A stretch of 64,000 nucleotides of DNA from an uncultured bacterium (GTDB lineage Bacteria > Omnitrophota > Omnitrophia > Omnitrophales > Aquincolibacteriaceae), in the NCBI GenBank assembly GCA_964606385.1, contig CAZSFZ010000002.1:35119-99118 (forward strand), read 5' to 3'. Each line of letters begins with the position of its first letter. The stretch's first letter is position 1. Position numbers and translations under genes: made by a program. The notes below the pieces were generated by a model, which did no database searches, had not been told where the DNA came from, and worked only from the letters and a program-made list of their open reading frames with translations. Shown piece by piece: positions 13,348 to 34,857 of this stretch.

Positions 13348-13349
13348 GA

Positions 13350-14253: not shown

Positions 14254-14325
14254 GACTGCGCACCTTAAAATGAATATTGGCGCAGCATTGTACCGTTGAC
14301 CCTTAAAATTGAATATCAAACGGTG
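14254..14325. repeat. Two adjacent hairpins whose loops carry the motif CCTTAAAAT(T)GAAT
   Basis: 14256-14285 has stem ctgcgc/gcgcag with loop accttaaaatgaatattg. 14292-14324 has stem accgtt/aacggt with loop gacccttaaaattgaatatca. A third copy lies at 42466-42504. Confidence 0.6.
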
Positions 14326-16311: not shown

Positions 16312-16313
16312 GT

Positions 16314-17147
16314 TCAGGACTCTCCGCCGGCGCATTTTTTAAAGGCGAGCAGTTTTTGAAGCAAGGGTTTCAGCTTGGAAAACGCGAGCGCATTGGGCCC
16401 GTCCGAAAGCGCCCGGGCCGGATTTTCATGGATCTCCATGAACACGGCATCCGCTCCGGCCGCCACGGCGCAGCACGCGAGCGTGGGAATGAATTCAGAC
16501 ATGCCGCCGGACGCCGTTCCCTTCCCGCCGGGCACCTGGACCGAATGCGTGGCGTCATAGACTACGGGATATCCGAAGCCCCGCATGATCGGGATCGCGC
16601 GAAAATCATTCACGAGATTATTGTAGCCAAAACTCGTGCCGCGTTCGGTGAGAAGGATCTTCTTGCACCCAACCTCCTCCAGCTTATCGATCATATTCTT
16701 CGCTTCCCAAGGAGAGAGAAATTGCCCCTTTTTCACATTCACGATCTTCCCCGTCGCCGCGGCCGCAAAGAGAAGGTCGGTCTGACGGCAAAGGAACGCG
16801 GGGACCTGCAGGATATCCGCGACTTCGGCCACGGGCGCCGCCTGTTCGGGCGTGTGGAAATCCGTCAACACGGGCAGCTTGAACTCCTTTTTGACCCGCG
16901 CGAGGATCTTTAATCCCTTCTCGATGCCCGGGCCTCGGAACGAACGGATCGACGAACGGTTAGCCTTGTCAAAACTTGCCTTAAATACATAAGGCACTTT
17001 GAGTGAACGCGCGACACCCGAGATCTTTTCCGCAAGCCGGAGCGTGCCTTTTTCGTCCTCGATTACGCAGGGCCCGCCGATCAGCACAAGCTTGCGGGGA
17101 TCCCCAAAAACGATTGAACCCAGAGCGACTTTATGCATGGATCTCAT
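16314..17147 (-). CDS. kdsA: 2-dehydro-3-deoxyphosphooctonate aldolase (KDO-8-phosphate synthase)
   Basis: [13 protein letters not shown] and the DATHSVQ.PGG motif are present. Length is 277 aa. Confidence 0.9.
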
Positions 17148-18831
17148 TCATCTCCTGTGCTGGTGTTTCCGGTTTTGCGAGCTCCGGTTTTTGGTGGACG
17201 GGAACTTCCAAACCGCATTCTTCCTGAAAAGCGAGGGCGTGACGAATGAACTCCCGGAAAAGCGGGTGCGCCCGGTCCGGCTTGGATTTGAATTCGGGAT
17301 GGAACTGAACGGCGAGAAACCACGGATGATCTTCCAGTTCGATCATTTCGACGAGCTTCCCATTCGGAGAGATCCCCGAAAGCTTCATGCCGGCCTTCTG
17401 GAATTTTTCGCGGTATTCGTTGTTGAATTCATAACGGTGACGGTGACGTTCCGAGATCTCTTCCGCCTTGTAAGCCTTGTAAGCCAACGTTTCTTTCTTG
17501 ACCTGGCAAGGATACGCGCCCAAACGCATCGTGCCTCCCAAGTCCTTCACATTCTGCTGCTCCTCGAGAAGGCTGATCACCGGGAAAAGCGTCTTTTTGT
17601 TGAATTCGGTGGAGTGCGCGCCTTTCATGTCCAGGACATTGCGGGCAAACTCGATCGCCGCGCACTGCATCCCGAGACAGATGCCGAAAAAAGGGACTTT
17701 CTTCTCGCGGCAATACTGGATCGCCTTGAGCTTGCCTTCGATCCCCCGGCTGCCGAACCCTCCGGGCACGAGAACCCCCGAAACCCCTCTGAGCTGCTGT
17801 TCCATCGAACGGCTCGTCTCAAGCTTTTCGGAATTGATCCTCTTGATCACAACACCCGAGTCGTTGGCGATCCCGCCATGCTTCAAAGATTCATAAATGG
17901 ACTTGTAAGCATCCTGCAACTCGATGTACTTCCCCACCACGGCGATCTTGACCATGTGTTTGGGATGGAGCGTGATATCGACCACGCTCTTTTTCCACTC
18001 GTGAAGACTTCCTGACTTGTATTCGATCTTGAGCTTCTGACAGATGACCTTGTCGATCCCCTCTTGTTTGAAGGTAAGGGGGCATTCATAGATCGAAGCC
18101 ACATCCCGCGCCTCGATCACGGCCTCGGGCTCCACGTTGCAAAAAAGCGCGATCTTGTCCTTCATCGCCTGGTCGATCTTTTTTTCCGTGCGGCAGATCA
18201 GAATGTCCGGCTGGATCCCGATCTCGCGAAGCGTTCCGACGCTGTGTTGCGTGGGCTTCGTCTTAAGTTCCCCCGCGGCCCGGATGTAAGGGACAAGCGT
18301 CAAATGGATGAAAAGGGAGTTTTCGCGGCCGACTTCATGACGGTATTGGCGGGCCGCTTCGAGGAACGGCAGGGACTCAATATCGCCGGCCGTGCCTCCG
18401 ACTTCCGAAATGACAATATCGTAGCGCTTGTTGCGGGAAACGTTCCGGATGCGCTCCTTGATCTCGTTGGTGATATGCGGCACGACCTGCACGGTCCCGC
18501 CCAAATAATCCCCGCGGCGTTCTTTGGTGATCACGCTGTAATAGACCTGACCACTCGTGACGTTGTTCTCGCGCCCCAACGTCGTATGCGTAAAGCGTTC
18601 GTAATGGCCGAGATCGAGGTCCGTTTCGGCGCCGTCATCGGTGACATACACCTCGCCGTGCTGGAAAGGATTCATGGTCCCCGGATCGACGTTGAGGTAA
18701 GGGTCCAGCTTCTGGATCGCGACCTTGAGGCCCTTCGCTTCCAGGATCTTCGCGATCGACGCGGACGCGATCCCCTTTCCAAGGGATGAAACCACACCTC
18801 CAGTCACAAAAATATGTTTCGGCATATTCAA
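17131..18831 (-). CDS. pyrG: CTP synthase
   Basis: [17 protein letters not shown] is followed by a C-terminal glutamine amidotransferase domain (GICLGMQ). Length is 566 aa. Confidence 0.95.
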
Positions 18832-19655
18832 TTCCTCACGGGGTTGACCTGCAATCGTTTTTCGACCTCACGCAGGTCCTCTTCCGTGTCCACGCTGATG
18901 AAATCATACGCCGTTTCGATCACGCGAATGGAACGGCCCCTTTCGAGGACCCTTAATTGTTCCAACTTTTCGATGTTTTCCAGAACGCCCGGTTTCCAGT
19001 TCACGAACTCCAGAAGAAAATCGCGGCGATACCCGTAAACCCCCAGATGCTTTAAAAAGCTGAAGGCGCCATCCTGCTTGCCCTGGCTTCCATTTTCTTT
19101 TCTCAAAGGATTGCCAGGACTAGCCCGATTAACCTTTGAATCTTGCAATGGAGAATTGGGCTTGCCTTGAAAAAAGGGGATCGTCGCCCGCGAAAAATAA
19201 AGCGCGTTCCCGTCCTCGCCGCAAACCACTTTAACAACATTCGGATTCTCATAGCTTTCCCGGTCGGTCATGCGCACGGCCAGGGTCAGCATGTCCATAT
19301 TTTTCGATCTTTCGAAAATGCCGACCATCTCATCCAGCGCTTTCGGGTCCACGAGCGGCTGGTCGCCCTGGATATTGATCACCAGCTCCTGCTTGAAATG
19401 TCCCATCACTTCCGCGATGCGCGACGTGCCGTTCGGATGGTCCTTGCGGGTCATAAAAGCCTTGCCCCCGAACCCTTCCACGCATTGCTGGATGCGGGCG
19501 TCATCGGTCGCGACGATCACATCCTCGAGTTTTTTCGCCTGCCGGGCGCGCTCCCAAACATGCTGGATCATGGGTTTCCCGGCGATCACACGCAGGATCT
19601 TCTCGGACAATCTTGTGGAGCCTAAACGCGCGGGAATAACGCCAAGGGCTTTCAT
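18828..19655 (-). CDS. kdsB: 3-deoxy-manno-octulosonate cytidylyltransferase (CMP-KDO synthetase), with a ~25-aa low-complexity insertion
   Basis: The N-terminus reads [16 protein letters not shown] and the protein contains [12 protein letters not shown] and EQLRVLE. An extra [35 protein letters not shown] segment lies between conserved blocks. Confidence 0.85.
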
Positions 19656-20671
19656 GCTTTTCGGATCGCTTCCTCAAGTTCTTCGGGGGTCACCGTCGCG
19701 GTCCCGAGCTTCCCGACCACGATCCCGGCGGCAAGATTAGCGAGTTTCGCGGCTTCCTGCATTTTAGCGCCTGCCGCCAGGGCAAGTGCGAGCGTCGCGA
19801 TCACTGTATCCCCGGCACCTGAAACGTCATAAACTTCGCGCGCGGCGGTCGGAACCCGGGTCAGCTTTTTATTTTTCTCAAAAAGAGCCATGCCGTCCTC
19901 GCCCAGCGTGATCAACACGGAATCAAGTTTCAATTTTTTCATGAGTCCCCAACCCACCGTTTCCAATTCCGGGGCTTTGTAGCAGGCTCCATGCGTCCGC
20001 TCATAGCCGGTGTAAGCCTCGCTGCGGTTCGGGGTAATGCAGGTCACGCCCTGATAATAAACAAAGTTCTTTTCTTTGGGGTCCACCAGCACGGGTTTTT
20101 TGAACTTCTTGGCAAGACGAACGATCTCTTTCAACAGGAAGGGCTGCATCACACCTTTGCCGTAATCCTCCAGGATCACGACATCCATGCGTTTGATATT
20201 CTCACGCACGAATTTGAGGATCTTGAGAAGATCCGTTTTGGAAACATCGTCCGTTTTCTCACGGTCAAATCGGACCACCTGCTGGGAATGTGCGATCACG
20301 CGGGTCTTAAGGGACGTCGGACGTTCCGGGTCATAAACGATCCCGCCGATTTCGATCCCTTGCTGGCGCATCGCCTTGAGCAGCATGCGTCCGTAGAGAT
20401 CACGGCCCACGACCCCGCAGGGACAGACCTGCCCCTGGAGAGAACGGATGTTGTTCGCCACATTGAGCGATCCCCCCGGCATGAAGGATTCCCGCTCAAC
20501 CTTGACCACCGGAACCGGCGCTTCGGGGGAAATACGCTTCACGCTTCCCCATACAAATTGGTCCAGGATGAAATCACCGATCACGAGCACACGGCCTCCT
20601 TGAAACCTTTCCAGGATCTCGAGAAAGCGTCTTTTTTCCAGACTGCTCAACGGTAAGGATACGGTCTTCAT
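19652..20671 (-). CDS. hldE: D-beta-D-heptose 7-phosphate kinase (HldE domain I / RfaE1-like PfkB kinase, kinase-only)
   Basis: VLVIGDFILDQFVWGSVKRISPEAPVPVVKV matches the HldE N-terminus and the C-terminal motif is GAGDTV. It is 339 aa and has no adenylyltransferase domain. A GGGGGA SD lies upstream. Confidence 0.85.
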   Translation of the reverse strand: MKTVSLPLSSLEKRRFLEILERFQGGRVLVIGDFILDQFVWGSVKRISPEAPVPVVKVERESFMPGGSLNVANNIRSLQGQVCPCGVVGRDLYGRMLLKAMRQQGIEIGGIVYDPERPTSLKTRVIAHSQQVVRFDREKTDDVSKTDLLKILKFVRENIKRMDVVILEDYGKGVMQPFLLKEIVRLAKKFKKPVLVDPKEKNFVYYQGVTCITPNRSEAYTGYERTHGACYKAPELETVGWGLMKKLKLDSVLITLGEDGMALFEKNKKLTRVPTAAREVYDVSGAGDTVIATLALALAAGAKMQEAAKLANLAAGIVVGKLGTATVTPEELEEAIRKA

Positions 20672-20747: not shown

Positions 20748-20776
20748 ATTCTAGCATCAGCGCTGAGCAGTGTCAA
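20748..20776 (-). promoter_or_regulatory. Near-consensus sigma70 promoter TTGACA-17-TAGAAT driving hldE-kdsB-pyrG-kdsA-kdsD
   Basis: The minus strand reads TTGACActgctcagcgctgatgcTAGAAT. The -35 lies at 20771-20776 and the -10 at 20748-20753. Confidence 0.6.
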
Positions 20777-22787: not shown

Positions 22788-23579
22788 TCAGGCGGCGTGG
22801 CCGGGTTCGTAAGCGGCAAGTTCGGCGACCACCTCGCCCAGCACGGGCACCTTGACCTTCATGAGAAGCGGGATGCGGCGCTCATCCAGGCTCATCCATC
22901 CCCTGACCTTGCCGCGCCGGACAAAAAACCCCTCGAAAAGCACTATCGGTTCGACCTCAACAGCCTGAAAAATACCCACATCATCGATCTTCATCTCCCG
23001 GACACCTTTCGTGGCCACCTCGAGATCCCAGTTCTTTTCATCCGCGTTCACCGGGATCATGACTTTGGAATCCGGTTTCAAGTCCTGCAGGCGGAGCCAG
23101 TAACAGCAGGAGATCTGGTCCTGAACGTCTTTCGGGATGAACATTTCCTTGCGGCTGTTGTCCTTGCGGGAATAGAAACGGCCGACATGCCCCTCCTGGT
23201 CATACTCCATGGATTCGTCGGTCCAGTAACGCCCTTCCTTGATCTTTTTTTCATACCGGAGGGAATGAAAACGCTCAACATCGATGTAGCTGTGATGCGT
23301 GTCCCGGACCTTGTAGATCCAGTCCAGGATCGCGCGGGAACGAACGTTGATCTCAATGTGATAGGCATCGCGATCGTTCACCTTGACGATCTCTTTGACC
23401 GTCGCCTCCGCTTCCCCGACGGGGAGCCCTGCGTAACGGACCTCAAATTTGATCTTTTCCCCGAGAAATATTTTTCCCGCGGAACTTTCGGAGGCCGGAA
23501 AAACCGTTTCCGCGTTTTCCGCAAAACCCGCGGGGATGAGCAACCCGCACAGGAAGAGGACCAGCACCGCTTTTTTCAT
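22788..23579 (-). CDS. DUF3108-family secreted protein
   Basis: The signal peptide is MKKAVLVLFLCGLLIPAGFA and a beta-rich body follows. The start was trimmed to 23579, 3 nt after the upstream stop. The long N-terminal ORF extension is discounted as non-coding. Confidence 0.65.
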   Translation of the reverse strand: MKKAVLVLFLCGLLIPAGFAENAETVFPASESSAGKIFLGEKIKFEVRYAGLPVGEAEATVKEIVKVNDRDAYHIEINVRSRAILDWIYKVRDTHHSYIDVERFHSLRYEKKIKEGRYWTDESMEYDQEGHVGRFYSRKDNSRKEMFIPKDVQDQISCCYWLRLQDLKPDSKVMIPVNADEKNWDLEVATKGVREMKIDDVGIFQAVEVEPIVLFEGFFVRRGKVRGWMSLDERRIPLLMKVKVPVLGEVVAELAAYEPGHAA

Positions 23580-23584
23580 AGACC

Positions 23585-24334
23585 TCAATTCCGGATCGTT
23601 CCGTCCAGGCCGATCACGATCCTTTTGACGGGAAGCTTGGTGCCGGAGAGTTCGACCGCTTCCTGGGCCATGCGGAAAAGGCCCGAACAGCAAGGCACTT
23701 CCATGATCACCACGGTCAGGGAATACACGGTATTGTTTTTCAGAAGTTCGGCGATCTTTTCGACATAACCGCCTGTGTCGTCGAGCTTGGGACAGGCGAT
23801 GACCAGCCTTTTCCCCTTGAGCATGTCCTGATGAAAACTTCCGAGCGCGAAAGCTGTGCAATCCGCCGCGATCAGAAGATCGCACTCCTTGAAATAAGGC
23901 GCGACCGGCGAGATCAAATGCAGCTGGATCGGCCACTGACTGAGCTCGGAGGGGGCGCCTCCCGCGGCCGAAGCTTCCGGTCTGGCGGAAGCCTCTCTTT
24001 TAAATTCGCGCGCCATCGAACCCGGGCAACCGCCAAACGACGGTAAAGCCGGCGCTCCGTGAACTTTTTTTGCGGCTTCGGGGCCCTGGGTCTTCATCAC
24101 ATGTTGAAAAGCGGCCTTGGCATCGTATTCCGCGCTCTCACGCTCCACGATCTTGAGGGCGTCCACGGGACAAACATCCAGGCAGGCCCCCATCCCGTCG
24201 CAGAAGATCTCTTTAACGAGCACGGCCTTTTTATGTTCATCCAGCACCAGCGCGCCTTCCGCGCATGCCTGGGTGCAGAGCCCGCATCCGTTGCATTTTT
24301 CCCTGTCGATCTCAATGATCTTTCGTTTTGCCAT
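23585..24334 (-). CDS. 4Fe-4S dicluster ferredoxin-domain protein with a C-terminal Cys-containing domain (function unknown)
   Basis: Two cluster motifs, CNGCGLCTQAC and CDGMGACLDVCP, are present. C-terminal cysteines include ACPKLDD and VPCC. An AAGGGG SD precedes the ATG at 24334. The gene overlaps the end of the upstream GT9 gene. Confidence 0.65.
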   Translation of the reverse strand: MAKRKIIEIDREKCNGCGLCTQACAEGALVLDEHKKAVLVKEIFCDGMGACLDVCPVDALKIVERESAEYDAKAAFQHVMKTQGPEAAKKVHGAPALPSFGGCPGSMAREFKREASARPEASAAGGAPSELSQWPIQLHLISPVAPYFKECDLLIAADCTAFALGSFHQDMLKGKRLVIACPKLDDTGGYVEKIAELLKNNTVYSLTVVIMEVPCCSGLFRMAQEAVELSGTKLPVKRIVIGLDGTIRN

Positions 24335-25409
24335 GGAGGACCCCTTGGATTTTTGAAAAAACCTCGCCCGGACCCAATTCTTTAAGACAGGCGATCGTCG
24401 GACACTGTTTATTATAACGGAATTTGTAATAACAGGGGCGGCAATCAAGGCCCTCCTTAAAAACAGCCCGGGCATCTTCCACGGGCGGGTAAGGCCCGTA
24501 AACTTCCGGAGGAACGGGTCCGTAGAACGCCACGAGCGGGACGCGAAGCGCGCGCGCCAAATGCACAAGGCCCCCGTCATTCCCGATAAAAAGCGCCGAC
24601 TTTTCAAGGACCTTCGCCGTTTGTGCCAGCTTCAGTTCCCCCGCCAGTACGATCGAGGGCGGCTTGATCATCGCCTGCAATTCCTCACAAAGCGCCCGTT
24701 CGGACCGACTTCCCAGGATCGCGACGCCGCGAAGGCCCCGCTCCGCCTGGATCTTCGCGATCAATGCCGCGAAGTTTTTCACGGGCCAGCGCTTGAAAGC
24801 GGCTTCCTTTCCCCAGGAATCCCCGCCTCCCGGAGCGACGGCGAGGAACCGTTCGGGAAGCAGTTTGAGCTTGTTCGCGACTTCCACCCCGATCAACGCG
24901 ACGGGTTTCGGAAAATAATATTCCAGAAAACGGTCCTCGACGGGGATGCCGGCCCTTTCCGCGAGGTCACAATAAAAATCCGCCGCGTGTTTTTTCCAGA
25001 AAGCCTCCGGGAGCGGGTAGCGGATGTTATGAAAAACCGCCCGGTTCTTGTACGCGAACCCCGCGCATTTCGGGACCCCAAGCAAGAACCGGCCCAGGAA
25101 GGCGTGCTCACGCCGAAGCGAGTAGTCCAGGATCAGATCGTAGTGTTTTGCACGCAGCTTTCGCCCCAGCTCCCACAGGTCCCGAAGATTTTGGAACGCA
25201 TTCTGGCGATGGGCACGGTCCTTGTCCACGACGAAAATCTCATTGATATGGGGATTGTTTTCCACGGCCTCGCGCGTCCGGGAACCCAAGAGCAGGTCCA
25301 CGGTCTCGACCGTCGGGATCAATCGCAGGGCCCGCATGACCGGCGTCACGAAAAGAAGGTCCCCGATCCCGTAAGGATGAACGATGAGCACCCGCCGAAG
25401 CGTTCTCAT
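24312..25409 (-). CDS. Glycosyltransferase family 9 (LPS heptosyltransferase-like), paralog 1
   Basis: The N-terminus has the GT9 motif RVLIVHPYGIGDLLFVTPVMRALR and the C-terminus reads GNDGGLVHLARALRVP. Length is 365 aa. Confidence 0.8.
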   Translation of the reverse strand: MRTLRRVLIVHPYGIGDLLFVTPVMRALRLIPTVETVDLLLGSRTREAVENNPHINEIFVVDKDRAHRQNAFQNLRDLWELGRKLRAKHYDLILDYSLRREHAFLGRFLLGVPKCAGFAYKNRAVFHNIRYPLPEAFWKKHAADFYCDLAERAGIPVEDRFLEYYFPKPVALIGVEVANKLKLLPERFLAVAPGGGDSWGKEAAFKRWPVKNFAALIAKIQAERGLRGVAILGSRSERALCEELQAMIKPPSIVLAGELKLAQTAKVLEKSALFIGNDGGLVHLARALRVPLVAFYGPVPPEVYGPYPPVEDARAVFKEGLDCRPCYYKFRYNKQCPTIACLKELGPGEVFSKIQGVLHGKTKDH

Positions 25410-26465
25410 TTAATGCATCTCCGGGACGGATCCGTGAAGAAGATCGCGCGCCGCGGCATAAACATCCTCCACGGCGATCTCATCGATGTAAGTGAATTTC
25501 CGCTCCGCCGCGGGAATATGAGAAACGTCTTTGGCGATCACCCGCCCGCGGCCTCCCAAAGGCCTCCAGCGTTCGGGTCCGAGCCCGGGTTCGTACCTTC
25601 CAAAAATGGAGACCACCGGCGTTTCGACGGCGGTCGCGATATGGACGGGCCCTGAATCATTCGAGATCAGCAGGGCTGCGCGTTTAAACAAGGCCCCAAG
25701 ATGCCCGAGCGAAAGTTTACCGCTCAGGTCCACCACGGGAATGTTTGTCCCCGCTTTCAGTTTTTGGACGGTCTCCCGGTCTTTGGCCGTTCCGATCGCG
25801 AGAAAAACATACGATCTTTCTTTCGCCATTTTCGTCACAAGCGCCGCGAAACGTTCCGCGGGCCACATTTTGGTCGCGTCACTTGCCGAAGGATTAAGCA
25901 CGATCCAGGGCCGGTCGTTCGGGATTTTATAAAATGCCAAAAGGTTTTCGAGCGAGCGGACCGCCCGGTTTGTCACAGGAAAAAAAAGACTTATTTTTTG
26001 CGGTGGAACGATCCCGAGAGGTTCCAGGAGGTCAAAAAGATATTCGGCCTCTTGTTTTTTCCCTTCTTTTTTGTCGTAGGGGTGGGCATGCGTGAGGGCC
26101 CAGGGAGCGCGGCGGGCATAACCGATGCGTACGGGGATCCCCGCGATCCAGGCGGCAAGGTGCATCCGATTCGTCCCGTGAGCGTGGATGACCAGGTCGA
26201 ATTTTTTATTCCCGAGGCTCTGGCTGAAATCAAGCTGCCCCCAAAAACCCCGCTCCTTCCCTTTTTTATCGTAAAGGATCGCTTCGTTCAGATACGGGTT
26301 CTCTTCGACGATCTCCCGGTGCTCGAGGAATACCAGGGCCGCGATCCATGCCCGCGGAAATTTTTCGCGCAGGGCTTTAAAAAGCGGGGTCGTGAGGACC
26401 AGGTCCCCGATACGGTCCGTCCGTGTGACGAGAATACGCGGAGCGTCAGGCAGCTTGATCGGCAT
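25410..26465 (-). CDS. Glycosyltransferase family 9 (heptosyltransferase-like), paralog 2
   Basis: RILVTRTDRIGDLVLTTPLFKALR and SNDSGPVHIATAV are present. Length is 351 aa. Confidence 0.8.
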   Translation of the reverse strand: MPIKLPDAPRILVTRTDRIGDLVLTTPLFKALREKFPRAWIAALVFLEHREIVEENPYLNEAILYDKKGKERGFWGQLDFSQSLGNKKFDLVIHAHGTNRMHLAAWIAGIPVRIGYARRAPWALTHAHPYDKKEGKKQEAEYLFDLLEPLGIVPPQKISLFFPVTNRAVRSLENLLAFYKIPNDRPWIVLNPSASDATKMWPAERFAALVTKMAKERSYVFLAIGTAKDRETVQKLKAGTNIPVVDLSGKLSLGHLGALFKRAALLISNDSGPVHIATAVETPVVSIFGRYEPGLGPERWRPLGGRGRVIAKDVSHIPAAERKFTYIDEIAVEDVYAAARDLLHGSVPEMH

Positions 26466-27408
26466 TCAGAAGCTCCAGCGAGAGCCGGACCACTTTTTCG
26501 GGTTTCAGACCGTGAAAACAGCTGCGCTCGGCGTAGGGCAATTTATCGGAACCGCAGGAACAGGCTGCGGCTTCTTCGCGCGCGATGCGGAATTTCGGTC
26601 CTTCATGCCCGTATTTTTCGTGGTTCGTCGGGCCGAAGATCCCGACGGTCGGCGTCCCCATCTCGGATCCAAGATGCATGATCGCGCTGTCGTTGGCGAT
26701 CACGAGCGCCGCGTTCGCGATCAGGGCCGCCGTTTCAGGGAGGATCAGTTCACCGCAAAGAACGCTCACAACTCCGGGAAGTTCGGACTCGATGCTGTCC
26801 GCGACCGGTTTTTCATTCAGCGTCCCGACCAAAAGGACTTTTTTTCCCGTTTTTTCATGAAGCGCCTTAATGACCTCTTTAAAGTATTTGACGGGCCAGC
26901 GCTTCCGTTCACTCGCGGCTCCCGCCGCCACCAGGATCCACCCGTTCTTTTCCGTCACCCCGAAGACTTCCAGCGTCCGCATGGCGAACACTTCATCCGC
27001 TTTATTGAAGAAAAGAAAAGTGGGCGGGACGGAAATGCCGGGCTCAACGGCCTCGAGCATTTCAAGATGGCGTTCCCGCATGTTGACCCGCGTGAATTTC
27101 CTGAAAAGAGGCGTTCGCTTCTTGCAGGAAACCAGGAACGGGATCGCGGTATTGCGAAGATCCACGACGAGGTCATACCGGGCTTTCCGAAGTTCCCCGA
27201 TAAATTTCAGTTTTTTCCAAAAAGAGGCTTTTTTGTCGTAGATCACGATCTTGTGGATGTCCGGACTCCGTTGCAGGACGCTTTGGGCGCGGGGACCGAC
27301 CACCACCGTAAGACGCGCTTCGGGATACTTCTTCGAAAGCGCCATGATCACGGGAGTCGTCAGGATCACATCCCCAAAATTACTTAAGGTCACCACAAGA
27401 ATGTTCAT
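26446..27408 (-). CDS. Glycosyltransferase family 9 (heptosyltransferase-like), paralog 3
   Basis: MNILVVTLSNFGDVILTTPVIMAL and ANDSAIMHLGSEMGTP are present. Length is 320 aa. Confidence 0.8.
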   Translation of the reverse strand: MNILVVTLSNFGDVILTTPVIMALSKKYPEARLTVVVGPRAQSVLQRSPDIHKIVIYDKKASFWKKLKFIGELRKARYDLVVDLRNTAIPFLVSCKKRTPLFRKFTRVNMRERHLEMLEAVEPGISVPPTFLFFNKADEVFAMRTLEVFGVTEKNGWILVAAGAASERKRWPVKYFKEVIKALHEKTGKKVLLVGTLNEKPVADSIESELPGVVSVLCGELILPETAALIANAALVIANDSAIMHLGSEMGTPTVGIFGPTNHEKYGHEGPKFRIAREEAAACSCGSDKLPYAERSCFHGLKPEKVVRLSLELLNADQAA

Positions 27409-28427
27409 GGCCGCCTCAGGACCCTTTCGATCGCGTCAAAAACTTCTTCGGGAACAATATGGGAAAGCCAGCCTTCTTCCGGAAGATCTTTGCCGAAAAA
27501 AGGCACCGGATATCCCGTCGGGACGTATTGTAACACGAGACTTTCGCCGCTCCCACGGGGTCCGGTGAGTTTGGGGTCCGTGGGGCCGAACAGGGCAACG
27601 ACCGGAGCCCCGACGCCGGAGGCGATATGCATGGGCCCGGAGTCTCCCGTCACAAGGCACGCGGCGTGTTTATAGACAGCCGCCGAAACGCGCAACCCCG
27701 TTTTCCCGACCAGGGAGATCACTTTGGCATTTCGGACCGAAGTGGCCAGCGCCTCCCAAAGCAGTTCGTCCTGGGAGGATCCCGTGACCACGACCGGAAG
27801 TTTCCACCTCATTTCGATCATCTCGGCAAGTGCCGCAAAATGTCCGACCGGCCAGCGCTTGGGCTCCCAATTGGCGCCTAAATGAAAACAAATATACCGA
27901 GAGTGTTTCCCGACACCGTGGGATTCAAGGATGCTCCGCGCGGCTTGCTCATCTTCTTCTTTGTAAAAAAACTGGTATTCTTTTTTGTCGGGAAGCTCAA
28001 ATCCCGCCCCGCGCATCATATTGAAGAAATAATCCAGCTGATGCATCAGTTGAGCGGGCTCCTGGACCGCCCGCGTCATAAACATCTTCCGCCCTTTTCC
28101 GTAGCCGATACGCTCTTTGACGCCCGCCATCGCTAAAAGCGCCGCGCGGGAACGGGAGCGATGGAAAAGATATCCTTGCTCCCAAGGCCCTTGTTTCCTT
28201 AACTCCATTAAAAATCCGGCCCGGGAGAGCCAGGAGCGGTGCGTGCTTTTTTCATCGAAACTTAAAAAACCCGAAACCGCAGGATGCGCTTCAAGGATCT
28301 CCCGGCAGCGCTCCGGGGCCATGCAAACGATCGAAGCCTCGGGATATTTTTTTTTGATGAGATCGAGCGCCGGCATCTGAAAAAGCAGGTCGCCGAGCCA
28401 ATTCTTCATCACCGCAAGGATCTTCAT
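27405..28427 (-). CDS. Glycosyltransferase family 9 (heptosyltransferase-like), paralog 4
   Basis: MKILAVMKNWLGDLLFQMPALDLI and TGDSGPMHIASGVGAP are present. Length is 340 aa. Confidence 0.8.
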   Translation of the reverse strand: MKILAVMKNWLGDLLFQMPALDLIKKKYPEASIVCMAPERCREILEAHPAVSGFLSFDEKSTHRSWLSRAGFLMELRKQGPWEQGYLFHRSRSRAALLAMAGVKERIGYGKGRKMFMTRAVQEPAQLMHQLDYFFNMMRGAGFELPDKKEYQFFYKEEDEQAARSILESHGVGKHSRYICFHLGANWEPKRWPVGHFAALAEMIEMRWKLPVVVTGSSQDELLWEALATSVRNAKVISLVGKTGLRVSAAVYKHAACLVTGDSGPMHIASGVGAPVVALFGPTDPKLTGPRGSGESLVLQYVPTGYPVPFFGKDLPEEGWLSHIVPEEVFDAIERVLRRP

Positions 28428-30520
28428 GACGCGAGAACCCTCTGGCAGTGTTCAAAAACTTCTTCCACGGAAATATGCTTGAGGCAGGCCAGGGTCTCTT
28501 TGGCCTTGCAAACGCCGTTGTAACACGGCTGGCACGGCAGATGATGCGAAAGCACATCGATCTTTTTTCCGGGCGGCACATGGCGCTTGGCGTCCGTCGG
28601 ACCAAAAAGCGCAACGATCGGGACGTTCATGGCGGCCGCCATATGAAGCGGCGCCGTATCCCCGGTCACGACCAGATGGAATTGTTTAAAAAATGCCGGT
28701 AATTCGTTCAGCTCGGTTTTGCCCATAAGGTCCAGGATCTTGCCGGTCCCGAAAGAATAAAAAGGCTGTCCCAGGTCGGCCTCCTCGGAAGAGCCGATCA
28801 GCACGATCCTCGCGTCATATTTTTCCAGAAGCCGTTTGGCCAAAGCGACAAAATGTTCCGACGGCCAGCGTTTGCTCGGCCAGTTCGGACTGGACCCCAT
28901 CACGAACCCGATGATCCGTGTAGATTCCTTCGGTTCAAGCGTCGCGATCATTTGTTTTGCTTTTTCAAGGTCCGCGGCCTTAGGCCAGAGTTCCAGGGCG
29001 TCATCGAATTTAACGACGCCGGCCTTGGACAGAACACGGAATTGATGGCGCAGGGGCGAATCACCGACCTCAAAGGTCCTGTCGGGCCGGTTCAGCAGAA
29101 AACCCCATTGCCCGCGTTCGAAACCGAAACGCTGGACCGCTCCCCCGAGATAAGCGAGGAGATGCGTCCATTTATTATTATGGAGATCGACGGACATATC
29201 GAAACCTTCACGGCGCACGCGGCGGGCGGTTTTCAGAAGATAAAAAAGATTCGAAAGTTTCTTCCGGTCCACCAGGATCATGTCATCCAGATACGGGCAG
29301 GATGAAACGATCGGCGCGAGTTTACGGTCCACCAGAAGCGTGATCGCCGCGTCCGGATAACGCTCCTTAAGCATCCGGAGGCTCGGCACGACCAGGATCA
29401 GGTCCCCCATCGCCCCCAGCTTGATCACCAGGATCCGCCGGCGTTTGCGGACTTCCTGATAAACGTCGAGCGTTTTCTTGACCATTTGCTCGAGGTTGAA
29501 CTGCTCCTCCACTTTTTTCCTCAATTTCACCGCAAACGATTTGGCCTTTTCCCGGTCCGTCAGAAGCTCGTACATGGCCTCCGCCATGGCGGGAATATTG
29601 CGCGGGGGGAACAAAAGCCCCGTCTCATGGTGCTCAATAATGTCCCGAACGCCACCCAGCCATGTCGCTACCACAGGCGTTCCCACCGCTCCCGCTTCAA
29701 TGACAACACGGCCGAAGGGCTCGGGGATCAGCGAGGAAAGAACCAACAGGTCGGATGCCGCCAAAAGGCCGGGAACGTCGCGGGTCGGGGGCAGGATCTT
29801 GACACAAGATTCAAGTCCAAATTGATGGACCGTTTTTTTCATCAGGTCTGTGTAACGGTGCCGACCGCGTCCTTCGGACCCTACGATCCAGACTTCAAAA
29901 TGGGAAAGCCGGCTTCGGAGCAGGTGCACGGCCTTAAGGAATTCCACCTGTCCTTTGCCGGCGGAAAATCTTCCCATCTGAAGGATCCGCATGGGACCTT
30001 TATGTTTTTCGAATTTTGCGAAGGAAAAGGTGAATTGAGAAAGGTCGACGCCCCGAGGGATCAGCCGGATGCGATCCGGCGGCACGTTGAATTCGTCGAT
30101 CATTCGCCGCCCGATCGCGTGTGAAGCCACGATCACGCGTTTGCCCCATCCCATGACATAACTCATGGGATGCACGGAATAGTGGCCGTGGCAGGTTGTG
30201 ATGAACGGAACGCCGGTCTTGCGTGCCGCAAGCCACCCGAGCCACGCCGGGACGCGGCTTCGCGCGTGAATGATATCCACACGCTCGCGCTGAATGATCT
30301 TCACGAGTTCTTCGACCAGAAAAAGTCCGGCCAATGATTTCTGATGAACGGGAAGCCCGTAATGAGGGATACCGATCTTTTGGAGCTCGGCCACGAGCGA
30401 CCCGCCGGATGAGACGACTACCGTCGCGTGGCCTTCCTTTTTCATGGCGCGCGCGAGGTCCACGACCCCGCGTTCGGTCCCGCCGAGTTCGAGTCCCGGC
30501 AAAAGCTGCATTACCTTCAT
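28424..30520 (-). CDS. Fused GT4 (group-1 glycosyltransferase) + GT9 heptosyltransferase-like protein
   Basis: The N-terminal ~370 aa form a GT4 fold (EPFGRVVIEAGAVGTPVVAT). The C-terminal ~330 aa are GT9 (ILVIKLGAMGDLILVVPSL...TGDTAPLHMAAAMNVP). Length is 698 aa. Confidence 0.8.
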   Translation of the reverse strand: MKVMQLLPGLELGGTERGVVDLARAMKKEGHATVVVSSGGSLVAELQKIGIPHYGLPVHQKSLAGLFLVEELVKIIQRERVDIIHARSRVPAWLGWLAARKTGVPFITTCHGHYSVHPMSYVMGWGKRVIVASHAIGRRMIDEFNVPPDRIRLIPRGVDLSQFTFSFAKFEKHKGPMRILQMGRFSAGKGQVEFLKAVHLLRSRLSHFEVWIVGSEGRGRHRYTDLMKKTVHQFGLESCVKILPPTRDVPGLLAASDLLVLSSLIPEPFGRVVIEAGAVGTPVVATWLGGVRDIIEHHETGLLFPPRNIPAMAEAMYELLTDREKAKSFAVKLRKKVEEQFNLEQMVKKTLDVYQEVRKRRRILVIKLGAMGDLILVVPSLRMLKERYPDAAITLLVDRKLAPIVSSCPYLDDMILVDRKKLSNLFYLLKTARRVRREGFDMSVDLHNNKWTHLLAYLGGAVQRFGFERGQWGFLLNRPDRTFEVGDSPLRHQFRVLSKAGVVKFDDALELWPKAADLEKAKQMIATLEPKESTRIIGFVMGSSPNWPSKRWPSEHFVALAKRLLEKYDARIVLIGSSEEADLGQPFYSFGTGKILDLMGKTELNELPAFFKQFHLVVTGDTAPLHMAAAMNVPIVALFGPTDAKRHVPPGKKIDVLSHHLPCQPCYNGVCKAKETLACLKHISVEEVFEHCQRVLAS

Positions 30521-32466
30521 ATCATGGCCCCCAACTTCTCAACCAATGCGCCTTTTTCGCGCTGAAGGACCGCCGTCGCGGGTTTTTTAACGAGTTCCGT
30601 GATATTCTTTTCCAAATCCGCCAAACCGCTCAAGGTCACGAGCCCGCGCTGCGCGAGGATCTGGTGAAAACGGTAATGTTTCGCGGGAAGGTCGCCTTCG
30701 CCGCAGCTTAGCACGATCACATGCTTCCCAGTCCCTACGGCTTCCGAGATCATAGCGAGACTGTCTTCCGTCACGATCAGAAGCTCCGCAAGCCCCATCA
30801 TGCCGCCCGCGGCGTAGGGCGGGTTTTCCTCGTTCGCCGCCACAAAAAATCTGCAGCCCGGATGCTGGACAAGTGTGTTTTTAAGAAAACGTTCCGCGGG
30901 CGCGGAGGTCCGGCGTGAAGTGGTGATCATGTAATCCCCCGCGTGAGTACTGACGCGCTTCAAAACCGAACAGAGTTTTTCCATATCAGAAACGGTCAGG
31001 TCATAACCCCGCGTGGCGCCGCCGATAAAGACCGCTATCTTCGGGCGCGCACTTTCCTCAAGCTTTGCGAGAAGTTCTTTCACATCCGATTCGCGGTCCA
31101 TGATTTTATAACCGCTTGGCATGATCACGCAGCGAAGCGTCCTCTTCGGTACTTTGCCTCCATCATGCGCCGGCACGATCGCAAGATCGTAGTGCGTCAG
31201 GGAGTAGGGAAAAGGCGGCTTCATGATGACGATCTTTTTGGCGCCGGTTTCTTTCGCGAGAAGCATCTGGATGGGCGCAAGGCCGGAACCCGCCGCGATC
31301 AGGTAGTCCGCGCTCACCGGCTCGATCGCCTGAAAAGTTTCCGCCGTCAGAAAGGGCTTGAGCCAGGAAAGTCGCCCCTGGATCCAGGGTTTCATCAAAA
31401 AAGCCAATCCGAAAAGAGCCATCCTGTGGAAAGCTGAACGGTATTCGACATGGATCCGTTCCGTCTCGAATTTAAGGCCGGGACGGCCGTGGAATTCCTT
31501 GAACTCCGAAAGCATCTCGGCCACAACTTCGGACTGCTTAAAATGGCCCGCCTTCCCGTCTGAAAGGATCACGATCTTCCGGTCCCAGGAATATTTCCAG
31601 CGTTTGTTCTCCCAGAGCCATTGATTCGGAAATTTGCGGATAAAACCTTCGAGCAATTCAATATATTGCCGGGCCTGGAACTCGATACGCGCTTGCGGCT
31701 CAAGGGAGGGGTCATCTTTCAGGACCTCCTCGGAATACACCTCATGCTCACGTCCTCCGGTCCTCACAATAAAGAACGGCATGATGAACGCGTCCGTCCG
31801 GTGCGCTAACTGGAAAGCCCCGATCGGGACCGTGGTTCTCCTCCCAAAGAACGGAAGGATGATCCCCTCGGTTTTTCCGGCCGATTGGTCGCCAAGCACC
31901 CCTACCATTTTTTTCTCCCGGAGCGCGCGGATCAGACCGCGGATACCCGCGCCGCGGCTGATCGAGACCGATCCGTGACTCTCGCGAAGTTCATTGATCA
32001 ATCCGTTAAGCTTGGGATATTTCTGATCGCGCGCCAGCACATAGATCGGTGTGCCGCGAAGCCCGGACCAGACCTGCAAAAGTTCCCAATTCCCGAAATG
32101 GGCGGTGAGAAGCACCCCGCCGTGCCCCGAACGCAGAAGCGCTTCATAGCGTTCCAGGTGGTGGATCTTGACATCGAGATCATGGTGCTTGCGTTTCATC
32201 TTCCTGAACGACATGATCTCTACCACATTTTGTCCCATGAACCCGAAGTGATCGCGCACGGCTTTCCATCGCTCGCGTGGCGTCAATTGGCTCCCAAGCG
32301 CCGCCTTCATGTTGATGTAAGCCACGCGGCGCTTCTTTGAAACATAGAAGATTCCGCGGCCCAAAAGATCACCGATCTTCAGTCCCGCGGAAAAGGGGAT
32401 GCGTTCAAAAATAAAAATGAGTATGTGGGCGACGGAACAAGCCGCCCGGTCAAGCAGGTCATTCAT
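30517..32466 (-). CDS. Fused LpxL/HtrB-family lipid A acyltransferase + DUF1022 (ELM1-like) domain protein
   Basis: The N-terminal ~300 aa carry the HFGNWE acyltransferase motif and PNQWLWENKRW. The C-terminal ~340 aa resemble DUF1022/ELM1 (GT-B-like). Length is 649 aa. Confidence 0.7.
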   Translation of the reverse strand: MNDLLDRAACSVAHILIFIFERIPFSAGLKIGDLLGRGIFYVSKKRRVAYINMKAALGSQLTPRERWKAVRDHFGFMGQNVVEIMSFRKMKRKHHDLDVKIHHLERYEALLRSGHGGVLLTAHFGNWELLQVWSGLRGTPIYVLARDQKYPKLNGLINELRESHGSVSISRGAGIRGLIRALREKKMVGVLGDQSAGKTEGIILPFFGRRTTVPIGAFQLAHRTDAFIMPFFIVRTGGREHEVYSEEVLKDDPSLEPQARIEFQARQYIELLEGFIRKFPNQWLWENKRWKYSWDRKIVILSDGKAGHFKQSEVVAEMLSEFKEFHGRPGLKFETERIHVEYRSAFHRMALFGLAFLMKPWIQGRLSWLKPFLTAETFQAIEPVSADYLIAAGSGLAPIQMLLAKETGAKKIVIMKPPFPYSLTHYDLAIVPAHDGGKVPKRTLRCVIMPSGYKIMDRESDVKELLAKLEESARPKIAVFIGGATRGYDLTVSDMEKLCSVLKRVSTHAGDYMITTSRRTSAPAERFLKNTLVQHPGCRFFVAANEENPPYAAGGMMGLAELLIVTEDSLAMISEAVGTGKHVIVLSCGEGDLPAKHYRFHQILAQRGLVTLSGLADLEKNITELVKKPATAVLQREKGALVEKLGAMI

Positions 32467-33515
32467 CAGTTCTTGACTCCCAAGAGACGGAACAGCCGGT
32501 CCGTCAGGATCTCCTCCCCCGACACGACCTTGAGGCGCGCGGCCAGGACGAGAGGGTTAAGCGTTTCCGCGATAAGCTGGCGGGAACGGTAAAAATCCTT
32601 TTCCGTCGTGATGATCTCTTCCGCGCCAGCGGATTGCGCGACTTCCTTGACCTTCAGAAGTTCTTCTTTGGTGTATTCATGATGGTCCAGGAATTCAAAG
32701 TTCCGGACCGTTTTGAGCTGGTAACGCTGCAGGACGAGCTGGAAAGACCGTGGCGTTCCGACCGCCGCAAAGGAGGCGACGCGCCGGCCGTTCATTTTTT
32801 CGATCGCCATCCGGACCTTGGTCTTCGCGCGATAGAGGAAAAGCACCTCCATCATGGTCTCGATGATCCTGGCCTGGGGCGCCAGCGCGGCGATCTTTTC
32901 TTTGAGCTTTTTAAGCTCTTCCGGGGTCACCAGGTTCACATGGGTAAGCACAATGATGGCCGCGCGGTTTAAAACGCCGAGCGGTTCGCGCAGAATGCCT
33001 CGAGGGATAAGCTTTCCGTTCCCAAAAGGATTGAGCGAGTTGATGACGATGATATCCACATCGCGGTGAAGGACCTGGTGCTGAAGACCGTCATCCAGGA
33101 TGGCGATGTCCACGTGCCTTTTTTCTTCTTTGACGCGCTGGGCGACTTTCGCGCGGTCTTTTCCGACCCCGATCACCGCGGCTGGAAGATGATTCTGGAG
33201 TTCTAGGGCTTCGTCATGACTGTAACCGCGCGTAAGGACCAGAGGAACACGCCGGTGCATGCCGATCTTGCGCGCCAGGTACTCCACAAAAGGGGTTTTG
33301 CCGGTCCCGCCCCAGGTCAGATTCCCGACACTGATCACGGGATAAGGAAGATGTTTTCGCTTCAGGACCTTTTTTTCATAGAGCCTGCGGAACGTCTGGA
33401 CTCCGAGCCCGTAACCCCATGCCGCGAACGAAAGAAAGCCCGAAAGCACGCCGCCCGTCGGGTCATTTTGCTTGTCCTCCGCCAAGAGACGGAAGTAATT
33501 CTTCATGCTGTCCAT
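32466..33515 (-). CDS. lpxK: Tetraacyldisaccharide 4'-kinase
   Basis: VISVGNLTWGGTGKTPFVEYLARK is the LpxK P-loop. Length is 349 aa. Confidence 0.85.
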   Translation of the reverse strand: MDSMKNYFRLLAEDKQNDPTGGVLSGFLSFAAWGYGLGVQTFRRLYEKKVLKRKHLPYPVISVGNLTWGGTGKTPFVEYLARKIGMHRRVPLVLTRGYSHDEALELQNHLPAAVIGVGKDRAKVAQRVKEEKRHVDIAILDDGLQHQVLHRDVDIIVINSLNPFGNGKLIPRGILREPLGVLNRAAIIVLTHVNLVTPEELKKLKEKIAALAPQARIIETMMEVLFLYRAKTKVRMAIEKMNGRRVASFAAVGTPRSFQLVLQRYQLKTVRNFEFLDHHEYTKEELLKVKEVAQSAGAEEIITTEKDFYRSRQLIAETLNPLVLAARLKVVSGEEILTDRLFRLLGVKN

Positions 33516-34857
33516 TGCCTAAAATCCTTTCTTGGGTACGCCGGCCCTTCAGGAACGTCAGGATCCACCCGGCCTGACGTTTGCTGGCACCCCGTAAACG
33601 GTTAACGATCTGAAAAGCTTTTTGCCCCATCGTACAACGCTTGCCCTCATTCGCGAGGAGCTCTGCCGCCGCGGACGACAATTCGTCCGGGGCCGAGATC
33701 CTGAGAGCGCCGCCGTCATGATCGAGCTGGTGGTAGATCTTGTGAAAGTTAAAAACGTGCGGTCCATGGATGACCGCCTTGCTGAAACGCGCGGGCTCGA
33801 TCGGGTTCTGACCCCCGTGAGGGATCAGGCTCCCGCCCATGAACACGAGATCCGCGATTCCGTACAGATTTTTGAGAACTCCCAACTGGTCCAGGATCTG
33901 CACCTGAGGGGCGATCCATTGTCCCTCCGGCCCGGAACCTTCTTGCTTCTTTGATGATGATAAGACCATACTGAAACCGAATTTTTCTAATTGCCTCAAA
34001 AGACCTTCCGAGCGTTCAATGTGGCGCGGCGCGAGGACCAGCTTGAGAGCCGGGAACCGCTCACGCAGTATTTTGAAGGATGTCAGAAGCGCTTCTTCTT
34101 CTCCCGGATGCGTGCTGCCCGCGATCCACACGATATCTTCCGGCGCATAGCCCCAGGCCTGCCGTAATTCCGCGGGATGGACCGCGTTGTCTCCCAGCCA
34201 TTCCGCTTGGTCGAACTTCATGTTCCCCATATCCCGCACGGATTCCGCGGTGATGCCCAATTGGCGGAAGCGGTCCGCGTCGTCCGGGGATTGCGCCAGC
34301 ACAAAATCAAGCTTCCCCCAGAGCGGCGTGAAAAGCCAAGGGAAAACCCGGTACCGCTTGAAGGAACGTTGGGACAACCGGGCATTGATCACGCCAACCG
34401 GGATATCCCTTCGTTTGGCTTCCGTCAAAAGGTTCGGCCAGATCTCGGTTTCGACCAGCAAAAGACAGACCGGCTGGAAGAGATCCAAAAAGCGTTTGAC
34501 CACGGCGGTCAGATCGAACGGAAAATAACAGACATGGACCCGTTCCCCCGCGAACTTTTTCGCGATCCTCTGGCCCGTGGGTGTCACCGTCGTGAGTAAT
34601 AGATCGAATTCCGGCGCCGAAGCCAGCCACTCCTGGATGAATTTCTCGACCGCCATCACTTCCCCAACGCTCACGGCATGAAGCCAGATTATTTTTTTAC
34701 CTTTAAATTTCCCAGCCCAATCCTTCGGAAAAATCCCGCGGCGCTCACGCCAAAGCGCGGAGGGATCTTCGGCCTGACGAAGCTTCATTAGGAAGATGGG
34801 CGCATAAAAGATCCCGAAAACGATAAACGCCAAATTATAGAGAATATTTCTGATCAT
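33463..34857 (-). CDS. waaA: 3-deoxy-D-manno-octulosonic acid (Kdo) transferase
   Basis: An N-terminal TM helix is followed by WLHAVSVGEVMAV. The GT30 C-terminus has GGSLIPHGGQNPIEPA. Length is 464 aa. Confidence 0.85.
   Translation of the reverse strand: MIRNILYNLAFIVFGIFYAPIFLMKLRQAEDPSALWRERRGIFPKDWAGKFKGKKIIWLHAVSVGEVMAVEKFIQEWLASAPEFDLLLTTVTPTGQRIAKKFAGERVHVCYFPFDLTAVVKRFLDLFQPVCLLLVETEIWPNLLTEAKRRDIPVGVINARLSQRSFKRYRVFPWLFTPLWGKLDFVLAQSPDDADRFRQLGITAESVRDMGNMKFDQAEWLGDNAVHPAELRQAWGYAPEDIVWIAGSTHPGEEEALLTSFKILRERFPALKLVLAPRHIERSEGLLRQLEKFGFSMVLSSSKKQEGSGPEGQWIAPQVQILDQLGVLKNLYGIADLVFMGGSLIPHGGQNPIEPARFSKAVIHGPHVFNFHKIYHQLDHDGGALRISAPDELSSAAAELLANEGKRCTMGQKAFQIVNRLRGASKRQAGWILTFLKGRRTQERILGNGQHEELLPSLGGGQAK

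Follow-up and report, generated by a model that had tools for sequence, protein, structure and literature searches.

Organization of the locus

Here we describe a minus-strand operon of an uncultured Omnitrophota bacterium, which probably serves the late steps of lipid A synthesis and the assembly of the inner core of lipopolysaccharide (LPS). It lies in a window of 64,000 nucleotides (nt) (GenBank assembly GCA_964606385.1, contig CAZSFZ010000002.1, positions 35,119 to 99,118 of the forward strand). Positions below are those of the window, and all features given with such positions are on the minus strand. Two genes of the operon are fusions, and five of its domains belong to glycosyltransferase family 9 (GT9).

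The operon begins with waaA, the gene of the transferase for 3-deoxy-D-manno-octulosonic acid (Kdo) (33463..34857; 464 amino acids (aa); PF04413 216 bits; NF004388 358 bits, under the cut-off of 438). It is followed by lpxK for tetraacyldisaccharide 4'-kinase (32466..33515; 349 aa; PF02606 212 bits; TIGR00682 162.5 bits, above the cut-off of 91.95). The next gene (30517..32466, 649 aa), referred to as LpxL::ELM1, joins an LpxL-type late acyltransferase domain (residues 1-293, 31588..32466) to an ELM1/GtrOC1-like GT-B domain (residues 294-649, 30520..31587). It is followed by GT4::GT9 (28424..30520, 698 aa), which consists of a domain of glycosyltransferase family 4 (GT4; residues 1-357, 29450..30520) and a WaaF-like GT9 domain named 'fus' (residues 358-698, 28427..29449). 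Four GT9 genes complete the array: GT9a (27405..28427; 340 aa; PF01075 110 bits), GT9b (26446..27408; 320 aa; 96 bits), GT9c (25410..26465; 351 aa; 127 bits) and the subclade-specific fifth GT9, GT9d (24312..25409; 365 aa; 102 bits).

The original prediction, made from the sequence of the window, gave the coordinates of these open reading frames (ORFs) exactly and all on the minus strand, and each of its domain calls is backed by Pfam. Its description of one continuous operon also fits, since no junction from waaA to the DUF3108 gene beyond the array has a gap of more than 5 bases; the longest overlap is 53 bases, and several overlaps are of the ATGA type. The genes thus overlap or abut and are translationally coupled. 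Terminator-like sites within the operon are no commoner than in shuffled sequence (31 found, 29.2 expected) and hence are uninformative on the transcript ends. In the independent Logan assembly SRR15237811 the genes have the same lengths (340, 320, 351, 365 and 249 aa), and GT9d is 100% identical. The split between GT9a and GT9b was considered as a frameshift of a fused gene and rejected: the junction is an ATGA overlap, and the split is common to relatives of 79-82% identity (L004, L006-L008 of the loci described below) and to the independent assembly.

Two conserved fusion proteins

The N-terminal part of the 649-aa protein is matched by PF03279 (Lip_A_acyltrans; residues 11-291, 145 bits) and the C-terminal part by PF06258 (Mito_fiss_Elm1, formerly DUF1022; residues 306-611, 146 bits). 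The acyltransferase domain resembles LpxL and LpxM in its PF03279 match, in the motif H123-x4-E128 (invariant in 67 sequences) and in its predicted fold. The nearest solved structures found by Foldseek on the model are those of A. baumannii LpxM (5knk, 5kn7) and of mycobacterial PatA. The domain thus combines the family match, the H-x4-D/E motif and an LpxM-like fold. Unlike LpxL and LpxM, it scores under all NCBIfam equivalog cut-offs (best NF006270, 127.9 bits against 248), carries a C-terminal GT-B domain without a linker and has a second paralog in the window, 15 kb away.

The ELM1 domain, modelled with AlphaFold2 from an alignment of 67 sequences, shows a GT-B fold with a predicted local distance difference test score (pLDDT) of 92.9. 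The domain thus unites a PF06258 score above the gathering threshold with a predicted GT-B fold. A sequence search against the PDB gave no match under E = 0.05. Across the same 67 sequences, down to 41% identity, a glycine-rich motif, TTSRRT and the acidic TEDSxSMxSE are invariant, which points to a conserved ligand site. The junction between the two domains (QWLW..KRWKYSW..R..ILSDGK.GH.KQ) is free of gaps and of any linker and ranks with the most strongly conserved parts of the protein. The model of the full-length fusion has a pLDDT of 89.5 and a predicted template modelling score of 0.85; the latter suggests that the LpxL and ELM1 domains are held in a fixed mutual arrangement.

A HMMER search with the ELM1 domain alone retrieves 2573 relatives at E <= 1e-3. 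Among the best 150 representatives of clusters at 50% identity, about 94 are fused proteins of 614-718 aa, matched from approximately residue 295, and a further 24 or so stand alone, with roughly 350 aa. An unfused counterpart of the Omnitrophota LpxL::ELM1 is found in locus L023 (9926-11978, plus strand), where the genes for LpxL (305 aa) and for an ELM1 protein on its own (355 aa) lie 67 nt apart; the pair is isolated among unrelated genes for a GH38 mannosidase, an M28 peptidase and a PIN protein.

The 698-aa protein has GT4 matches over residues 13-331 (PF00534 115.5 bits, PF13439 109.4 bits), so that both Pfam halves of glycosyltransferase family 4 are represented, and a match to PF01075 (Glyco_transf_9) over residues 430-675 with 105 bits. 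A match to PF20706, 'GT4 in conflict systems' (27.3 against 26), was discounted because it lies under far stronger GT4 matches. The best PDB match of the GT4 domain is 7mi0 (E 6e-49), an entry on which we found no literature. WaaG chains are not among its PDB matches at E < 1e-5, and its identity to E. coli WaaG is no more than 21% (BLASTP 42.7 bits), which does not amount to a specific similarity to WaaG. Across 16 diverse sequences, the GT4 and GT9 domains are joined by a basic pentapeptide without gaps.

The two fusions are authentic, and both are conserved. Full-length LpxL::ELM1 (at least 600 aa) occurs in 113 of the 120 best protein clusters at 41-85% identity, and full-length GT4::GT9 (at least 680 aa) in 117 of 120 at 53-91% identity. 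The idea that the fusion genes are assembly or frameshift artefacts is therefore refuted, and we assign it practically no weight: there are more than 110 independent full-length clusters for each of them, the junctions are conserved and gap-free, the genes are present in the closed genome NZ_CP019384, and the independent assembly of the same organism agrees.

Conservation across Omnitrophota

Species-representative genomes were scanned with an alignment of the fusion protein, and the fetched loci (denoted L001, L002 and so on) were annotated with local hidden Markov models. Nearly all homologs with a source name come from Candidatus Omnitrophota. The module xerC-waaA-lpxK-LpxL::ELM1-GT4::GT9fus-[GT4]-GT9a-GT9b-GT9c-[GT9d] is found in every sufficiently long Omnitrophota locus, with its order seen in 19 to 21 of them, and is present in the closed genome of Ca. 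Velamenicoccus archaeovorus LiM (L036, NZ_CP019384). The position of waaA is the same throughout all Omnitrophota loci examined, and a GT4 domain directly follows ELM1 in all 19 loci in which the contig continues. Four of the GT9 domains occur widely within Omnitrophota; in the surveyed loci the fifth, GT9d, is limited to the subclade of the window, and more distant Omnitrophota clades have an extra stand-alone GT4 in its place.

Beyond this phylum, the query finds matches by its LpxL half alone, and these have from none to two GT9 neighbours. In loci of Desulfobacterota, Nitrospirota and Armatimonadota (L038, L039, L047, L071 and L074) waaA-lpxK-lpxL likewise stands beside GT9 genes; however, LpxL is stand-alone there, one or two clean WaaF- or WaaC-like GT9 genes accompany it, and both ELM1 and GT4::GT9 are absent. 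Thus, the arrangement is specific to the lineage, as the original prediction had proposed, and the check it called for, conservation of the fusions among relatives, finds both of them in every complete Omnitrophota locus examined.

Neighbouring genes of the module are fused differently in different lineages. GT9a::GT9b occurs in L001 and L002, GT9b::GT9c in L012, L018 and L036, GT9c::GT9d in L008, and WaaA::LpxK in the Omnitrophota metagenome-assembled genome (MAG) of L016. We also observed WaaA::LpxK in Pectinatus haikarae (L060) and Anaerovibrio (L075), an LpxK::LpxL fusion in an Armatimonadia MAG (L068), and, in a Nitrospiria MAG (L055), a protein of 557 aa that joins a WaaF-like GT9 to a HAD phosphatase resembling GmhB. 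The WaaA::LpxK, LpxK::LpxL and WaaF-HAD fusions come from longest-ORF calls in the fetched loci. The fixed gene order together with the lineage-varying fusions of neighbours suggests that neighbouring enzymes act in succession or as a complex.

Five GT9 domains

All five GT9 domains pass PF01075 with 96-127 bits against a cut-off of 22. They are 22-27% identical to one another and 41-57% identical to their positional orthologs, taken from loci whose fusion proteins are 55-59% identical to those of the window. Judged by these low mutual and higher orthologous identities, the five domains are ancient orthogroups and not recent tandem copies. The array does contain the five GT9 domains of the original prediction, but the recent duplication suggested by its wording 'four tandem GT9 paralogs' does not apply. 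The prediction also set the array against three such enzymes in E. coli; this count is wrong, because K-12 has four annotated ones (WaaC, WaaF, WaaQ and WaaU), and therefore the array has one more than K-12 rather than two.

According to the published structure of WaaC, D13 (after strand 1) is the catalytic aspartate, and Lys192, Glu/Asp222, Asp261 and His266 are the donor-binding residues. The five GT9 domains of the window and their orthologs in L001 and L002 all retain the equivalents of D13, K192, E/D222, D261 and H266. None of the domains looks dead.

The fused GT9 is the only one to pass the WaaF model TIGR02195 (153.4 bits, cut-off 134.6); GT9a (130.4), GT9d (120.3), GT9b (120.0) and GT9c (119.1) remain below. 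None reaches the cut-off of the WaaC model TIGR02193 (best GT9b, 99.9 bits against 185.3) or that of the HepIII/WaaQ model TIGR02201 (best GT9c, 131.9 against 170.2, which is its top NCBIfam match). The best PDB matches of GT9a are 3tov and WaaF 1psw.

A tree built by neighbour joining from 86 sequences over 337 columns, with 200 bootstraps and few reference enzymes of proven specificity, recovers each orthogroup as monophyletic (support: fus 0.92, a 0.67, b 0.35, c 0.97, d 1.0). In profile comparisons with hhalign, GT9d is the most divergent (scores of about 270-370, versus 450-620 among the other groups). It also differs in the donor motif, which is D-G-G in GT9d and D-[ST]-[GA] in the other domains. 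Among the surveyed loci GT9d is restricted to the window, L001, L002, L004, L006 and L008; at the protein level it is found in at least 120 clusters, down to 52% identity, and every named one is from Omnitrophota. In the same comparisons, GT9a is the top match of the WaaF-like profile, and fus that of the WaaC-like one. As these are only weak rankings, we do not accept them as assignments.

LPS genes around the array

The operon is set among housekeeping genes, with dprA, topA and xerC upstream. Downstream, the order is a [4Fe-4S] protein, DUF3108, DUF1846, hldA, kdsB, pyrG, kdsA, kdsD, lpxL2, an lptC/lptA-like ORF and lptB. With waaA and lpxK on one side and hldA, kdsB, kdsA, kdsD, a second lpxL and lptC/A-lptB on the other, the unit is LPS-related, as originally proposed.

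Closest to the array is the gene of a two-cluster [4Fe-4S] protein (23585..24334; 249 aa, with Fer4 family matches), the start of which overlaps the stop of GT9d by 23 nt. It occupies the same position in L004, L006, L007, L008 and L086, and its relatives also match PF27217 (AF_0155). An iron-sulfur protein is thus found coupled to an LPS core operon. The DUF3108 gene (22788..23579; PF11306 122 bits) begins 5 nt past the Fer4 gene, and its product has a clear signal peptide (N-terminus MKKAVLVLFLCGLLIPAGFA). In L002, L012 and L019, too, a DUF3108 gene comes after the array, and the protein may be an envelope component tied to LPS.

The hldA gene for D-glycero-beta-D-manno-heptose-7-phosphate kinase (19652..20671; TIGR02198 393.9 bits, above the cut-off of 345) lies about 3.6 kb downstream of the array and is found downstream of it also in L001, L005, L007, L008, L011, L018 and L022. 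It is followed by the block kdsB-pyrG-kdsA-kdsD (15340..19655) for the supply of CMP-Kdo, with matches to CTP_transf_3, CTP_synth_N, DAHP_synth_1 and SIS plus CBS in Pfam, 326 bits on the KpsF/GutQ family model, and junctions that overlap by 4-22 bases. In the 169-nt gap upstream of hldA we noted a near-consensus sigma-70-like promoter (20748-20776) with TTGACA, a 17-nt spacer, TAGAAT and an extended -10 TG. Its position suggests that hldA-kdsB-pyrG-kdsA-kdsD form a transcription unit separate from the GT9 operon.

The second LpxL-family gene, lpxL2 (14316..15266; 316 aa, PF03279 149 bits), is where it had been predicted. It is a stand-alone acyltransferase gene, and its product, a paralog of the fused LpxL domain, shares 28% identity with that domain. 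Genes for LPS export follow (12622..14231; TIGR04409, an LptA-like part and ABC_tran). Of these, the ORF directly upstream of lptB (13350-14231, 293 aa) matches LptC at residues 8-176 (TIGR04409 78 bits, cut-off 38) and LptA/LptD_N-like families at residues 198-275, and from its sequence looks like a fused LptC-LptA periplasmic bridge protein.

Farther away, a gene for a sugar-1-phosphate nucleotidyltransferase (252 aa) overlaps by 4 nt with one for a bifunctional phosphoglucose/phosphomannose isomerase (325 aa) at 6438-8170; this pair could supply a donor for the GT4 domains. At 58672-60561 there is an Mfd-like ORF of 629 aa with UvrB_inter, CarD_TRCF_RID, DEAD and Helicase_C domains; the usual Mfd has about 1100 aa, and the ORF may be truncated or split.

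Comparison with known systems

With the waa (rfa) loci of E. coli and Salmonella the operon shares the families GT9 and GT4, the catalytic and donor-binding residues of WaaC, and a similar linkage to waaA, and its fused GT9 passes the WaaF model. There are also differences. Five GT9 domains stand here against four in K-12, and none of them is a clear WaaC or WaaQ ortholog. The GT4 domain, distant from WaaG, forms one polypeptide with a GT9, and the GT9 genes share their operon with lpxK and lpxL.

The only experimental study of a bacterial ELM1-like protein that we found concerns A. baumannii 2903, the nearest relative of the ELM1 domain to have been studied. VanOtterloo et al. (2024) report that deletion of A1S_2903 (GtrOC1) cuts the core back to Kdo2, that deletion of the GT4 gene lpsB has an identical phenotype, and that 2903 and LpsB add KdoIII and GlcNAcA (N-acetylglucosaminuronic acid) to Kdo2-lipid A only when they are co-expressed, also in E. 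coli (PMC10936431). The Omnitrophota operon has in common with that system PF06258, the predicted GT-B fold, a predicted substrate at the level of Kdo2-lipid A and the GT4 partner. Here, however, ELM1 is fused to a late acyltransferase and GT4 to a GT9. The lipooligosaccharide of Acinetobacter is without heptose, while an HldA kinase and five GT9 domains are found here. By this analogy, the Omnitrophota ELM1-GT4 combination appears to be the Acinetobacter pairing in a different arrangement.

Proposed mechanism

We suggest, with moderate confidence, that the locus is a conserved late lipid A and LPS inner-core operon, the products of which would act in the order LpxK/WaaA, LpxL, ELM1 with GT4, and five GT9 steps. 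The scheme starts from the observed domain content, the conserved fusions, the retained catalytic residues and the LPS gene context; for it we infer the sugars transferred, the order of the steps and the physical coupling of the enzymes.

All steps are expected to take place at the cytoplasmic face of the inner membrane. In the first step, LpxK and WaaA would produce Kdo-lipid IVA. In the second step, the LpxL domain would attach a secondary acyl chain. In the third step, the ELM1 GT-B domain, presumably rigidly fused to LpxL, would share the Kdo-lipid A substrate with the GT4 domain encoded by the next gene; the fusion of ELM1 to LpxL points to the same substrate level. ELM1 and GT4 would then jointly make the first Kdo-proximal glycosylation, for which the A. 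baumannii pair 2903 and LpsB serves as the model. In the fourth step, the GT9 domains fus, a, b, c and d would add one residue each, most likely heptose from ADP-heptose; the HldA kinase encoded in the neighbourhood supports this donor indirectly.

More tentatively, the core may be built by a coupled chain of enzymes. LpxL::ELM1 would then be a 'Rosetta stone' which reveals that ELM1 proteins are true glycosyltransferases acting at Kdo-lipid A and obligately paired with GT4. We regard this extended reading as possible rather than probable.

Several observations weigh against the proposed scheme. The arrays are incomplete in L005, which has GT9a and GT9b only, and in L015, which has no downstream GT9. 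With fus as the one exception, the GT9 domains stay under all curated heptosyltransferase cut-offs, and no domain scores best on the HepI (WaaC) model, whereas GT9 genes beside lpxL in other phyla reach 207-263 bits on the WaaF model or 170-180 on the WaaC model. The phylogeny against WaaC, WaaF, WaaQ and WaaU, which had been called for as a check, recovers the five orthogroups, but their links to the WaaC and WaaF clades have support of at most 0.10, so that no domain has a supported placement with either. Among the larger ORFs of the window gmhA, gmhB, hldC and hldD were not found, and HldA is the sole gene of the ADP-heptose pathway there. As for ELM1, the best structural matches of the model are UDP-N-acetylglucosamine 2-epimerases and not transferases, and the transferase activity of ELM1-like proteins is without biochemical demonstration (PMC10936431). 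Of the 'heptose- or Kdo-rich core' originally predicted, a heptose-rich core is plausible from the sequences and is to be read as inference, given the single domain that passes a cut-off, the tree support and the lone HldA.

Alternative explanations

The GT9 evidence leaves room for an inner-core operon in which at least one GT9, above all GT9d or GT9b, transfers a sugar other than heptose, so that the core is long and branched but not heptose-rich. Besides heptosyltransfer, CAZy family GT9 lists a non-heptose activity as well. The four domains under all heptosyltransferase equivalog cut-offs, the divergent profile of GT9d with D-G-G in place of D-[ST]-[GA], and the lack of a resolved grouping with WaaC or WaaF all speak for such a core, as does the pair of isomerase and nucleotidyltransferase genes at 6438-8170. 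On the other hand, HldA adjoins the array in many loci, every known donor-binding and catalytic position of WaaC is kept, and the fused GT9 passes the WaaF cut-off. Taken together, we consider this alternative conceivable, though somewhat doubtful. Much farther from our expectation is an array that serves a glycoconjugate other than LPS, such as protein O-heptosylation of the TibC/Aah type or a capsule, and stands beside lipid A genes by chance. A match of GT9b to the autotransporter heptosyltransferase model TIGR04414 might hint at it; its score of 19 bits, however, is far under the cut-off of 200. The translational coupling of the array to lpxK and lpxL and its position between waaA-lpxK-lpxL and hldA-kds-lpt, conserved phylum-wide, make this explanation very improbable.

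The ELM1 domain, too, can be read in another way, as a scaffold or other non-catalytic partner, or as an epimerase- or hydrolase-type module that modifies nucleotide sugars; in such a role it would recruit the adjoining GT4, activate it or provide its donor. The A. baumannii study leaves such a role open, and plant ELM1, which it cites, is an adaptor and no enzyme; yet gna, 2903 and lpsB suffice in E. coli for the addition of two residues, and its authors favour a transferase (PMC10936431). The motifs invariant in 67 sequences also point to a conserved ligand site. Thus, we consider a non-transferase ELM1 unlikely, and a transferase that acts together with GT4 is kept in the proposed scheme.

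Implications

The operon is an uncharacterised variant of a well-known pathway and not a new kind of system. Every component comes from a known family, and for this reason the practical impact is modest. The NCBI pipeline already labels the proteins 'lipopolysaccharide heptosyltransferase II' and 'ELM1/GtrOC1 family putative glycosyltransferase'. In the literature we found no paper on Omnitrophota LPS genes or on LpxL::ELM1 and GT4::GT9 fusions, and nothing relevant on published GT9 fusions; the main survey of Omnitrophota has no mention of LPS, heptose or lipid A (PMC10066038).

We note that knowledge of LPS core synthesis comes almost wholly from Proteobacteria. The conservation of LpxL::ELM1 gives independent comparative support to the experimental result of 2024 that an ELM1-like protein works directly on Kdo2-lipid A and needs a GT4 enzyme as its partner to do so (PMC10936431). 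LpxL::ELM1 and GT4::GT9 also offer a compact two-gene system in which the ELM1-plus-GT4 mechanism can be tested in E. coli. The alternative fusions of neighbours lead to testable predictions on the order of the steps and the contacts of the enzymes, and the core may hold up to five heptoses. A heptose-rich core is plausible for Omnitrophota, a phylum of ultra-small, host-dependent bacteria. If the coupled-chain reading is true, it would extend the two-enzyme step of Acinetobacter to this distant phylum, and the GT9a::GT9b, GT9b::GT9c and GT9c::GT9d fusions would record the order of the remaining steps.

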